Assembly (NCBI GenBank): GCA_016180105.1
Contig: JACPBZ010000005.1
Span: 1 to 42,545 of the forward strand
From: Candidatus Woesearchaeota archaeon
Lineage (GTDB): Archaea > Nanobdellota > Nanobdellia > Woesearchaeales > UBA10216
DNA length: 42,545 nt
Direction: 5' to 3'
Of this stretch, positions 25,700 through 28,389 are shown in pieces. Each line of letters begins with the position of its first letter. Positions within the stretch are counted from its first letter, which is position 1. The notes beneath the pieces are model-generated. The model did not search any database, was not told the origin of the DNA, and saw nothing but the letters and a program-made list of their open reading frames with translations. Both the position numbers and the translations under genes were made by a program.

Positions 25700-27184
25700 T
25701 TACCCCTTCACTACGCCCAGTGGCACAAGCCGCGCAACAAGTTTTCCGAGCTTTGCCTCGTTTGAGACCCTGCAGACTTCGTCAACGTCCTTGTATGCGG
25801 GGATGTTTTCTTCCGCGATTCCTTTCCAGCTTGCTGCTTTTACGAGTATGCCGCGCTGCTCCAATTCCCGGGCAACTGTTTCTCCCCGGTATCTTTTTAT
25901 GGCTTCTGCCCTGGACATTTCCCTTCCGGCGCCGTGGGCGGTTGAGCCCCAGCTTTTTTCCTCTGACTCGTTGGTTCCGACAAGGACGTAGCTTGCTGTT
26001 CCCATCGTGCCAGGTATGAAGACTGGCTGTCCTGTGCTGCGGTAGAGCTCGTTGACTTCTTCCCTTTCGGGGCCAAAGCTTCTTGTCGCGCCTTTCCTGT
26101 GGACGCATAACTCTTTCATCTCGCCGTCAACCTTGTGCTTCTCTATCTTGCCGATGTTGTGGCACACATCGTAAACCTGCCGCATCCCATCATCCGAGCC
26201 CATTACTTTCTTGAAGCTGTCCCTTATCCAGTGGACTATCATTTGCCTGTTTGCGAAGGCGTAGTTCATTCCGGAGCACATTGCCTTGAAGTATTTCTGG
26301 CCGAGCTCTGACTGGAATGGCGCGTTGATGAGTTCCCTGTCCGGGATGTCGGCAAAGCCGTATTTTTTTTCCATATCGCGGATGTAGTCTGATGCGACTT
26401 GGTGTCCCAATCCGCGAGAGCCGCAGTGGACCATTACCGTGACTTGGCCTTTTCCTGTTATGCCAAAGGCGGCTGCTGTTTTCTCGTCGTAAACAGAGTC
26501 GACAGCTTGAATTTCAAGAAAGTGGTTTCCTGCTCCAAGTGTGCCGAGCTGCGGCTTGCCGCGCGCGATGGCCGTTGTAGAGACGCACTCCGGGTCTGCT
26601 TCTTTCATTGAACCGTAATCCTCTGTTGTTGCCAGGTCATCCTTGGTGCCGTAGCCCTGCTCCAGGCTCCACTTGCTTCCCTTTGCGAGTATCTCTTTCA
26701 TTTCAGAATCTGACAGCCTTGTGAGCCCTCCTCTTCCAACTCCTGAAGGCACTTCAGCGAACAAAGTATCGAGAAGCTGCTTCAATTTCGGATTGATGTC
26801 ATCAATAGTCCAGTCTGTACGGATGAGACGCACGCCGCAGTTGACATCATCTTAGGGAACAGAAGCCAGAGCTTCTAGTTCAATCCTATGCCACCTGGGC
26901 TGATAATTCCATCCTCGGTATCGAACGCTGCCACACCCCCTATTGGAAAGCCGTCAAAGGCCAAGCCAGCCTTAGCTGGACTGGAATCCTTCGTGGGCGT
27001 CTGGCATTACGTACGAGTACTTCTGTATGCCTTTTAAGTGGGCCACATTTGCAGCCTGCATCAAAGTCCTGTCCTGCTGAATCTTCTTCACCAGCTTTTC
27101 TGATGCGAAAATTCTCGCAGGCACTTTCATGCCGCCGTGCTTTGGTATTTCCCACTCGTATTCAGAGATTTTCTTGAGTTCCAT
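25700..27184 (-). CDS. rtcB: RtcB RNA-splicing ligase, spliced from 3 exons: 27184-26986, 26954-26883, 26850-25700 (473 aa)
   Basis: The spliced product restores [18 protein letters not shown]...SPGGIGYDVNCGVR. GNHFLE, HCGSRG, HN, HRKGAT, HGAGR and YKDV are intact. SD GGAGGTG at 27203-27197. Confidence 0.93.
26851..26882 (-). other. rtcB intron 2 (32 nt, bulge-helix-bulge)
   Basis: CA-UAGG-AU^U-GAAC...GUUC-CCUA-AG^A-UG; splits Tyr91 (U|AU) and contains an in-frame UAG. Confidence 0.9.
26955..26985 (-). other. rtcB intron 1 (31 nt, bulge-helix-bulge)
   Basis: CG-AAGG-AU^U-CCAG...UUGG-CCUU-UG^A-CG; splits Tyr67 (U|AC) and contains an in-frame UAA. Confidence 0.9.
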
Positions 27185-27235: not shown

Positions 27236-27970
27236 TTATTCGAGTGCAGAAATCACGGACTCCGCGAATTTCCTGGGATGGTGGAATGGCCAGTAGTGGT
27301 CGCCTTCCACTGTTATGAGGTTGGAGCCTTTTATCAGGCCATTGAGCGTCGGGGCGTGCGACACCGGGAACATGAAGTCGTCTTTGCACCAGATGAGCGT
27401 TGTTTTTGCGGGTATGTTGCCGAAAATGTGGCAGCCGTGGGTTTTCGCGCTTGCGCTTATTTCCCTGAAAAGGCTTCTTTTTTCAGGGCGTCGCAATGAT
27501 GCAAAGAAAGTTAATGATGCCCCGAATCTGTTGGCAACGTGCCTTAGGTCTCCGTGGAGCAGCATAAAGCCTGAGCTTCTTAGCAGGTTAACAAGCATTT
27601 TTGCGAATGAAGCGCTCCTTGGAACCCCTGCAGGGTTGACGAGCACCAGTCTCGAGACAAGTTTTTCCCTGGCGAGAATGCCGGCTATGGCTCCCCCAAA
27701 GGATGTGCCGACAACAATCACGTTTTTCAGGCCGAGCTTCTCAGTCAGTTCCCTGACGCATTTTGCGATGCAGAGCGTGTTGCCGCATTTCCCGTCGAAC
27801 AGGTAGGGGGCGTATACGGTGTAGTGCTGGGCAAGTGCCTTGAGCGAGGCTTCGTAAAGGTGTGGTGTTGTTGGCCAGCCGTGAAGGAAAATAAGCGTTT
27901 TTCCAGTTCCTCCTTGCAGGTACCTCATCTTGCAGCCGTTGACGATTGCTGTTTTTCTTTGGAGGATCAT
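27236..27970 (-). CDS. Alpha/beta-fold hydrolase
   Basis: FLHGW, the GTSFG nucleophile elbow, and later Asp and His (DDFMFP, GDHYW). Confidence 0.85.
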   Translation of the reverse strand: MILQRKTAIVNGCKMRYLQGGTGKTLIFLHGWPTTPHLYEASLKALAQHYTVYAPYLFDGKCGNTLCIAKCVRELTEKLGLKNVIVVGTSFGGAIAGILAREKLVSRLVLVNPAGVPRSASFAKMLVNLLRSSGFMLLHGDLRHVANRFGASLTFFASLRRPEKRSLFREISASAKTHGCHIFGNIPAKTTLIWCKDDFMFPVSHAPTLNGLIKGSNLITVEGDHYWPFHHPRKFAESVISALE

Positions 27971-28389
27971 ATGTCAATCACGACCTGGACTGTCCATTGC
28001 GGTCCTTCCTGCTTCACGAACATGCTGTTGTATGTGCACGCCTTTACCTGTGGGCCTATTGTCTCGTAGTTCCGGGCCTCATCGCCCATCACAACGGCAG
28101 AAAGGGAGTATTTCCCTTTGCGGTTGCTGATTTTTATTTTCCTGATTTTTGAAAGGAAGAAATTGTCAGTGTCGAGCAGTATGATGAACTGCTCAAGGAA
28201 CTGCTGCAGCAGGGATGGAAGGTCTTCGCCTTCTGCTTCTATGTCTTTCTTCACGACAGCCTCCACCTTGCTTGTCTCGACCATGACGTTTGATAGGGCA
28301 AATGCCGCATTGGAGAAAGCCTCCTCGAGTGTTTTCCCGTACGCCTTGAACTTCACGTCTGCCGTGTGTGGCAGGTATTCGTATTTCAT
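27967..28389 (-). CDS. Archease (RtcB activator)
   Basis: YEYLPHTADV, GKTLEEAFSNA, VKACTY and terminal VVIDI. Confidence 0.93.
   Translation of the reverse strand: MKYEYLPHTADVKFKAYGKTLEEAFSNAAFALSNVMVETSKVEAVVKKDIEAEGEDLPSLLQQFLEQFIILLDTDNFFLSKIRKIKISNRKGKYSLSAVVMGDEARNYETIGPQVKACTYNSMFVKQEGPQWTVQVVIDI

Follow-up and report, generated by a model that had tools for sequence, protein, structure and literature searches.

We analysed a 42,545-nucleotide (nt) stretch of DNA from a Candidatus Woesearchaeota archaeon (GenBank assembly GCA_016180105.1, contig JACPBZ010000005.1, positions 1 to 42,545 of the forward strand), referred to here as the window, in which the gene for the RNA-splicing ligase RtcB is broken by two short inserts. 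With a probability of about 85%, both inserts are genuine archaeal bulge-helix-bulge (BHB) introns in the rtcB pre-mRNA of this DPANN lineage, a reading that is based on the predicted fold of the inserts, on its conservation in relatives and metagenomes, and on the precise restoration of a selected reading frame. Their cleavage and ligation, the identity of the acting ligase and any feedback that might follow are inferred from sequence. The window is contig C37 of a metagenome-assembled genome (MAG; G000) of 888 kb in 49 contigs, estimated to be 89% complete, and the nearest public relatives of this genome are groundwater MAGs named Candidatus Woesearchaeota.

The interrupted rtcB gene and the predicted fold of its inserts

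The rtcB gene lies on the minus strand (27184..25700) with its reading frame interrupted twice. Exon 1 (26986..27184, 199 nt) begins with the ATG at 27184 and breaks off after the first letter of a Tyr codon; it is followed by the BHB-type intron 1 at site 1 (26955..26985, 31 nt), exon 2 (26883..26954, 72 nt, corresponding to 24 codons including the two split Tyr codons), the BHB-type intron 2 at site 2 (26851..26882, 32 nt), and exon 3 (25700..26850, 1151 nt including the TAA stop at 25702-25700), which carries the conserved active-site His residues. Site 1 splits a Tyr codon as T/AC within the His-Glu-Gly-Tyr-Gly motif, and site 2 splits a Tyr codon as T/AT, one codon ahead of the residue aligned to Asp95 of Pyrococcus horikoshii RtcB. 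Stops occur in all three frames of the unspliced DNA over the insert region. Joining the exons by their coordinates with a script gave a single RtcB frame of 473 amino acids (aa), confirming the observation of two inserts that break rtcB: a first-pass annotation, made from the window sequence, had described inserts of 31 and 32 nt whose removal leaves one 473-aa open reading frame (ORF), with the same coordinates and frame.

The identity of the gene is supported along its whole length. Exon 1 corresponds to positions 1–25 and exon 3 to positions 52–426 (E 7.5e-138) of the Pfam RtcB family (PF01139), and the genome-level RtcB profile match covers positions 1–426 with 494 bits, running through both inserts. 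Exon 3 aligned to residues 100–481 of P. horikoshii RtcB (1uc2_A, E 1.4e-131) with the GNH, GHQ, HNI and HGAG stretches retained, and in the alignment to this structure intron 2 lies four codons ahead of the residue aligned to Cys98. Asp95 and Cys98 are metal ligands of RtcB according to the available text of a review of the family (PMC10630183). On its own, the exon 3 frame begins downstream of the counterparts of Asp95 and Cys98 and therefore cannot yield an active enzyme; because intron 2 directly precedes these residues, only the spliced message would encode active RtcB.

Each insert can be drawn, together with its exon borders, as a BHB motif on the minus strand. BHB 1 spans 26952..26993, with outer pairs joining 26993-26992 to 26953-26952, a central helix formed by 26991-26988 (AAGG) and 26960-26957 (CCUU), a 5′ bulge at 26987-26985, a 3′ bulge at 26956-26954 and an inner hairpin at 26984-26961. 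BHB 2 spans 26848..26890, with outer pairs joining 26890-26889 to 26849-26848 and extendable to 26895/26843, a central helix formed by 26888-26885 (UAGG) and 26856-26853 (CCUA), a 5′ bulge at 26884-26882, a 3′ bulge at 26852-26850 and an inner hairpin at 26881-26857. Both inserts have all four central base pairs (bp), in which four exon nucleotides pair with four that lie close to the insert 3′ end, two 3-nt bulges, and an inner hairpin that is flush with bulge and helix; the exon context AGGAU/A is common to both sites. The borders that restore the frame fall, at both sites, after the second nucleotide of each bulge, and the only borders giving the product seen in intron-less relatives are these BHB-rule positions. 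Cleavage of BHB motifs between the second and third bulge nucleotide is described in the sections available to us of Yokobori 2009 (PMC2738675). The BHB geometry with borders after the second bulge nucleotide, which had been proposed in the first-pass annotation, was found in both window inserts and in all 18 inserts from the family genomes described below.

Taken from the single window sequence before any comparison, the predicted BHB is suggestive; the single-sequence fold z-scores were modest, at −2.8 and −1.9 for pieces of 61–62 nt. Searches of the window with Rfam at gathering score returned 0 matches and ARAGORN found no match in it. A group I or group II intron, or another known structured RNA, was rejected on the lack of an Rfam match and on the size of the inserts, which are only 31 and 32 nt, against the hundreds of nucleotides typical of such introns. 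No copies of the introns were found elsewhere in the genome, where blastn-short matches were of at most 14 nt.

The inserts are present in independently retrieved DNA contigs. A check on the DNA, proposed with the first-pass annotation, found both inserts carried unchanged, with 0 differences, in contigs of four DNA runs (record 5 of X1 covers 26643-27133); the four runs belong to one study that is possibly the source of the MAG, and they therefore exclude an assembly error and do not count as independent occurrences. One X1 contig holds an allele without insert 1, which is missing exactly at the predicted borders. In an X3 contig, two extra A residues in intron 2 (window position 26867) lengthen it to 34 nt, the size of the intron in the related genome G003, which shows strain-level length variation in the hairpin loop. 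Both variant contigs are strain or sister-species variants present as DNA.

Conservation, covariation and selection in relatives

The family of the window genome in the Genome Taxonomy Database (GTDB) comprises 26 species genomes, 24 of them with an RtcB match. Inserts occupy one or both sites in 13 of these 24 genomes: both sites are filled in four (G000, G003, G008 and G021), site 1 alone in six (G002, G004, G006, G018, G022 and G025), and site 2 alone in three (G011, G019 and G023). Neither site is filled in 10 genomes, three of which (G005, G010 and G020) have an intein. In G012 (locus L040, G012:C61), 94 nt are deleted with a frameshift, spanning both intron sites and the Pro-Asp-Ala-His motif; a pseudogene and a misassembly are among the possible explanations, and no endA match was found in G012 either. 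The 18 inserts from GTDB genomes (11 at site 1 and seven at site 2) are 29–34 nt long, mostly not multiples of three, and all of them show four of four central pairs, 3-nt bulges and a flush hairpin.

On a tree of RtcB proteins, intron content differs between near-identical proteins, as in the pairs G021 (both sites) and G023 (site 2 only), G018 and G024, and G000 and G002; synonymous differences aside, alleles without introns match the predicted spliced product. These comparisons indicate that rtcB introns are gained or lost precisely among close relatives. The G003 bin also includes a 1163-nt contig (G003:C225) with a second, distant rtcB (L036, 52% identical). At site 1 this copy carries an insert that resembles the one in the main copy of G003, and a further insert of 32 nt occupies a third site, located one codon ahead of that used by inteins; the contig may derive from a contaminating archaeon, or the copy may point to transfer of introns. 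The inteins of G005 (L062), G020 (L063) and G010 (L045/L046) start at the Cys aligned to Cys98, four codons past site 2. Inteins in rtcB were also seen in G036 and G040, and two metagenome loci (L069 and L075) combine a site-1 insert with a gap of more than 1 kb between RtcB matches at the Cys98 intein position.

Pairing within the inserts is conserved through sequence change. When the 11 site-1 inserts were aligned, 94.3% of cells formed standard pairs, compared with 83.4% in shuffles (none of 500 reached the observed value), and sliding the partner by 1–3 columns left 19–56% paired. The first-pass annotation had suggested looking for compensatory changes in the rtcB of relatives; pairing was kept, with seven site-1 pairs changed on both sides. 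One of the seven belongs to the exon–intron helix, a synonymous GAA-to-GAG change in the exon being accompanied by a CCUU-to-CCCU change in the intron. The hairpin of intron 2 varies as well, with compensatory changes.

A metagenome scan in which only the exon flanks and a gap length of 25–36 nt were specified returned 24 matches, of which 22 were rtcB by tblastn (42–92% identical to the window protein over the aligned stretches). All 22 rtcB matches contained a BHB, 21 with four of four central pairs and one with three of four, and both of the matches that were not rtcB lacked one. In the outer and central helices, the exon strands were set by the search pattern; the intron side was free to vary and still pairs. 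Pooling the 11 genome and 22 metagenome inserts at site 1 gave 33 sequences of 27–34 nt, 29 of them distinct, in which 96.2% of end-anchored cells were standard pairs, compared with 20–61% when the partner was shifted, and inner-helix positions showed three to five standard pair types each among the 29 distinct copies. Seven inserts of the pooled set have a length divisible by three, and each of them contains an in-frame stop. The exon flanks of site 2 are invariant in the seven genes with intron 2 (0 of 28 columns vary, in proteins that are ~68–90% identical) and variable in 15 family alleles without it (10 of 27 columns), a pattern better explained by structure or recognition constraining the coding sequence than by very recent transfer. 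Overall, these alignments provide strong comparative evidence for a predicted BHB beyond chance.

To describe the distribution beyond the family, we used a Pfam census of the order, in which RtcB was found in 388 of 401 genomes; the sample was evenly drawn and includes 15 genomes flagged unpublished, none of them among the six that matched the DNA pattern. This pattern, which detects site 1 with standard flanks only, matched six of the 401 genomes, four in the family and two in two other families, and the reversed control gave 0. In two other members of the order, G093 (L091, G093:C114) and G135 (L090, G135:C6), which also lie outside the family, rtcB carries a 33-nt in-frame insert containing a stop, positioned between a His and a Trp codon two codons upstream of site 1; its core is BHB-like with three of four central pairs, and the two copies differ by a compensatory change. 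G135 has an additional 12-nt insert two codons upstream of site 2, with a 4-bp exon–intron helix and no inner helix, and cutting it at BHB-rule borders gives the usual Gly-Gly-Ile-Gly-Phe-Asp stretch. Across lineages, rtcB is interrupted at at least five positions within ~35 codons of the N-terminal active-site region, by inserts that measure 12–37 nt over all sites. A break in the rtcB of G033 was ruled out as an intron, being a scaffold gap of N.

The spliced frame is maintained by selection. Removal of the inserts from all 12 full-length interrupted genes gave frames of 472–474 aa with the same C-terminal end, and these genes contain no frame breaks besides the inserts. Among seven genus-mates (six interrupted and one intron-less; 21 pairs), the ratio of nonsynonymous to synonymous substitution rates (dN/dS) was 0.024–0.058 at dS values of 0.5–3.2, as expected of a spliced rtcB frame under strong purifying selection. 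Neutral evolution of the exons and absence of endA had been named in the first-pass annotation as observations that would speak against splicing; the dN/dS values are far from neutral, and one endA was found.

Gene calls in public databases are in keeping with the interruption. Of the 120 protein clusters closest to exon 3, 40 consist of N-terminally truncated gene calls (333–435 aa), whose first residues map mostly to positions 60–64, 77–83 and 93–110 of the spliced protein. One of the truncated calls comes from a contig equal in length to that of locus L065, in which site 1 holds an insert. At the level of clusters rather than of individually inspected loci, this fits the earlier expectation that automated annotation mishandles the gene. 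Six RtcB proteins that are 65–66% identical to exon 3 (P0057, P0071, P0081, P0088, P0098 and P0102) are labelled as the bacteria Candidatus Aminicenantes or Saccharicenans, which could reflect lateral transfer or mis-binned contigs.

An insert of a similar kind was found in cbf5, which encodes a pseudouridine synthase. In G001 (L093, G001:C66), G004 (L092, G004:C75) and G009 (L094, G009:C5), representing three of the 18 family genomes with a TruB_N match, this gene contains an 18-nt in-frame insert with a TAA. The insert is BHB-like: its outer helix has 5 bp and its central helix 4 bp (CUCU/AGAG), the bulges measure 3 nt and the inner loop is minimal. Its BHB-rule borders split the catalytic Asp codon after the first letter. 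The same codon position is given for the crenarchaeal cbf5 intron in the accessible part of Yokobori 2009 (PMC2738675). The cbf5 of the window genome (G000:C41:57218-57559) is uninterrupted, and no interruptions were found in endA, archease or fibrillarin across the 26 genomes of the family.

Predicted splicing machinery and alternative explanations

The window genome encodes the components that such splicing would need. It contains one rtcB and one endA (G000:C28:678-1265, minus strand), the latter encoding a 195-aa protein with both Pfam domains whose best solved relative is the catalytic alpha subunit of Nanoarchaeum equitans (3iey_A, E 2.9e-36); no endA paralogue was found among 6035 six-frame ORFs of at least 60 aa in this genome, the next E-value being 0.94. 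In each of the 24 family genomes with a match, endA is single and uninterrupted. The gene for the RtcB activator archease (27970..28383, minus strand; PF01951, E 2.9e-38) lies two genes upstream of rtcB. Its open frame runs on to 28596 (209 aa) and the Pfam match begins at residue 72, the internal Met just before this match being the likelier start. All 26 family genomes have an intact archease gene, which is near rtcB in most of the genomes listed for both genes; in the window, the two are separated by an alpha/beta-hydrolase gene (27239-27970). No match to the PF09414 RNA ligase was found in the genome at E≤0.1. ARAGORN detected 19 tRNA genes without introns and about 14 more only when introns were allowed (one of them implausible, with 770 nt), and the tRNA set, with about 32 genes listed, is probably heavily interrupted and incompletely detected. 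Because about 14 tRNA genes were found only with introns allowed, the cell needs the splicing pathway for its tRNAs.

A mechanism can be proposed on this basis. The rtcB transcript would fold such that each exon–intron border lies in a 3-nt bulge beside a 4-bp exon–intron helix; EndA, a single alpha-type protein that probably acts as a homotetramer, would cut after the second nucleotide of each bulge; and pre-existing RtcB, together with archease, would join the three exons and probably circularise the introns. Since one rtcB and no PF09414 ligase were found in the 89%-complete genome, RtcB would most likely be needed to mature its own mRNA. In the portions of the literature available to us, the cutting of relaxed motifs and non-tRNA substrates is ascribed to enzymes with an extra loop or to heterotetramers (Kaneta 2018; Yokobori 2009, PMC2738675), and a broad EndA substrate range is tied to added loops, with alpha4-type enzymes carrying a DPANN-typical loop (Kaneta 2018). 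The canonical BHB core of the rtcB inserts fits a stricter endonuclease.

Several observations weigh against the interpretation of the inserts as BHB introns. The outer exon–exon helix is short, with just two uninterrupted base pairs at either site; an extended version at site 2 reaches six pairs over seven positions, and no good extension was found at site 1. This EndA may or may not accept a 2-bp outer helix, and in the alignment of this enzyme the six extra residues that precede the catalytic His of the N. equitans alpha subunit are absent. The minimum-energy folds predicted by RNAfold lack the canonical 3′ bulge: at site 1 the helix is longer instead, and at site 2 the bulge has 6 nt. Of the seven listed sequencing runs with the locus, none is recorded as RNA. 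At 89% completeness, a second ligase or endonuclease subunit could be missing from the assembly, and the deletion in G012 suggests that rtcB may be dispensable or decaying in some lineages. Screens of the window genome for frames bridged by a BHB gave 231 candidates compared with 196 in a parallel-pairing control, hence no excess, and an energy-filtered screen (48 compared with 40) and a stricter screen (109 compared with 101) likewise gave no candidate that was convincing by eye; these screens require exons of at least 40–60 codons and would miss rtcB site 1, which makes them uninformative rather than negative.

The incompleteness of the assembly also bears on the question of which enzyme closes the message. 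EndA might cut the introns while another enzyme joins the exons, or joining might be inefficient, so that RtcB would not depend on itself. The missing part of the genome leaves room for such an enzyme, and PF09414 was the sole alternative ligase family searched. We nevertheless regard this explanation as improbable, given the single rtcB, the lack of a PF09414 match and the position of archease near rtcB in most of the genomes listed for both genes. RtcB is, to our knowledge, the only archaeal enzyme family that joins 2′,3′-cyclic phosphate and 5′-OH ends.

That the inserts stay in the RNA and are passed over by translational bypass or paired frameshifts, or that the gene is expressed as separate fragments that later assemble, seems very improbable. 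The inserts are short (29–34 nt) and contain a hairpin, like the bypassed gap of phage T4 gene 60, where matching take-off and landing codons define the bypass. However, both gaps in rtcB lie inside a split Tyr codon with no repeated flanking codon, which leaves no take-off and landing match, and an exact BHB geometry kept by compensatory changes is not required for bypassing. Assembly of separate fragments is hard to reconcile with an exon 2 without a start codon and with an exon 3 frame that begins past the residues aligned to Asp95 and Cys98. Least credible of all is a decaying rtcB pseudogene with chance insertions, or an assembly error, even though a gene caller sees a broken frame and a frameshifting deletion is present in G012. 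The dN/dS values of 0.024–0.058, at a dS of 0.5–3.2 with synonymous sites near saturation, argue that the gene is not a pseudogene, as does the lack of other breaks in the 12 genes. In addition, the same two sites are used in 13 of the 24 family genomes, the insert recurs in 22 metagenome contigs, the contigs of four runs carry the inserts, and the broken gene is the only rtcB in its genome. Bulge-helix-bulge introns thus remain the preferred explanation for both inserts.

Possible origin of the proposed introns and relation to known systems

The first-pass annotation had also proposed that the dependence of RtcB on itself forms a regulatory feedback loop. This proposal is weakened by the existence of intron-less sister species, by the use of at least five sites across lineages and by the insert in the cbf5 of genus-mates. 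Because of the precise intron-less alleles, the varied sites and the cbf5 insert, colonisation of conserved sites by introns is likelier than a control device. Self-dependence would then have arisen incidentally, as small introns settled in conserved sites of genes for RNA processing; it is not a demonstrated regulatory circuit, and the autoregulatory reading is unproven and secondary. In the simplest reading, small BHB introns settle in catalytic-site codons, where imprecise loss would be lethal, as inteins do. The exon-pairing strand that the intron brings with it would limit the workable sites, and hints at a route of movement.

A more far-reaching possibility, which we consider rather unlikely, is that rtcB is a preferred landing place of mobile mini-introns that spread by a reverse EndA/RtcB reaction, resulting in a self-sustaining RtcB state. 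Insertion would in that case occur at exon sites able to pair with the CCUN strand of the intron, and RtcB activity would be inherited cytoplasmically, such that a cell losing it could not regain it and an all-or-none switch on tRNA maturation and growth could result. The cbf5 insert would then imply that the introns are ancient or that they repeatedly target the catalytic codons of RNA-processing enzymes.

Introns in archaeal mRNA had been called rare in the first-pass annotation, in agreement with the accessible text of Schwarz 2020 (PMC7714728), according to which only cbf5 has been reported, plus one case in the 5′ untranslated region in Haloferax. No report of an rtcB intron was found in a full-text literature search, which most subscription journals and supplements lie outside, and the words 'intein', 'interrupted' and 'bulge-helix-bulge' do not occur in the available text of the 2023 RtcB review (PMC10630183). 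With this reservation as to the literature, the inserts extend a known kind of intron to a new host gene and a new lineage, with the ligase of the pathway itself interrupted.

A close parallel is the crenarchaeal cbf5 BHB intron (Watanabe 2002; Yoshinari 2006; Yokobori 2009, PMC2738675), which, in the part of Yokobori 2009 available, is likewise located in a catalytic-centre codon, shows patchy gain and loss, and is removed by the tRNA splicing enzymes, the same route that we infer for rtcB. The present case differs in its host gene, in belonging to DPANN rather than Crenarchaeota, in having two introns per gene and in the use of at least five sites across lineages. It further combines a canonical BHB core with one alpha-type EndA, whereas the crenarchaeal cases, as far as Yokobori 2009 describes them, combine relaxed motifs with a heterotetramer, and the rtcB introns are known at the DNA level. 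The BHB introns of archaeal tRNA and rRNA, processed by EndA and then by RtcB with archease, share the motif, the cut positions and a similar size range (11–175 nt for tRNA introns in the available sections of Yokobori 2009, PMC2738675). In contrast to these, the rtcB substrate is an mRNA in which one strand of the central and outer helices is coding sequence, and synonymous sites are therefore constrained, as in the site-2 flanks (0 of 28 columns).

Two further systems invite comparison. In eukaryotic XBP1 and HAC1 splicing by IRE1 with RtcB or Trl1, as portrayed in the partial sources at hand, an mRNA is likewise spliced independently of the spliceosome: the endonuclease produces cyclic phosphate ends, a tRNA ligase then acts, and loss of the excised piece restores or changes the reading frame, as would removal of the rtcB inserts; that system, by contrast, uses another endonuclease and RNA motif, is regulated by stress, and acts on an mRNA that does not encode the ligase. 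RtcB inteins interrupt the same active-site stretch as the rtcB introns. Inteins, however, are in frame, extend over several hundred codons and leave at the protein level, whereas the rtcB inserts are 12–37 nt long, defined by RNA structure, and introduce stops or frameshifts.

These findings have implications for the annotation and the biology of these archaea. Gene callers shorten the interrupted genes, and metabolic and completeness estimates for DPANN may score an essential gene as broken. The 29 distinct site-1 introns, together with the inserts of 12–37 nt over all sites, provide a data set on what the splicing endonuclease needs outside tRNA, and how BHB introns move becomes directly testable through their precise gain or loss between near-identical species. 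If splicing is confirmed, rtcB would be the second archaeal host gene of such introns, the first in DPANN, and the first archaeal gene with two of them, and the message for the enzyme catalysing the last step of splicing would itself have to be spliced.

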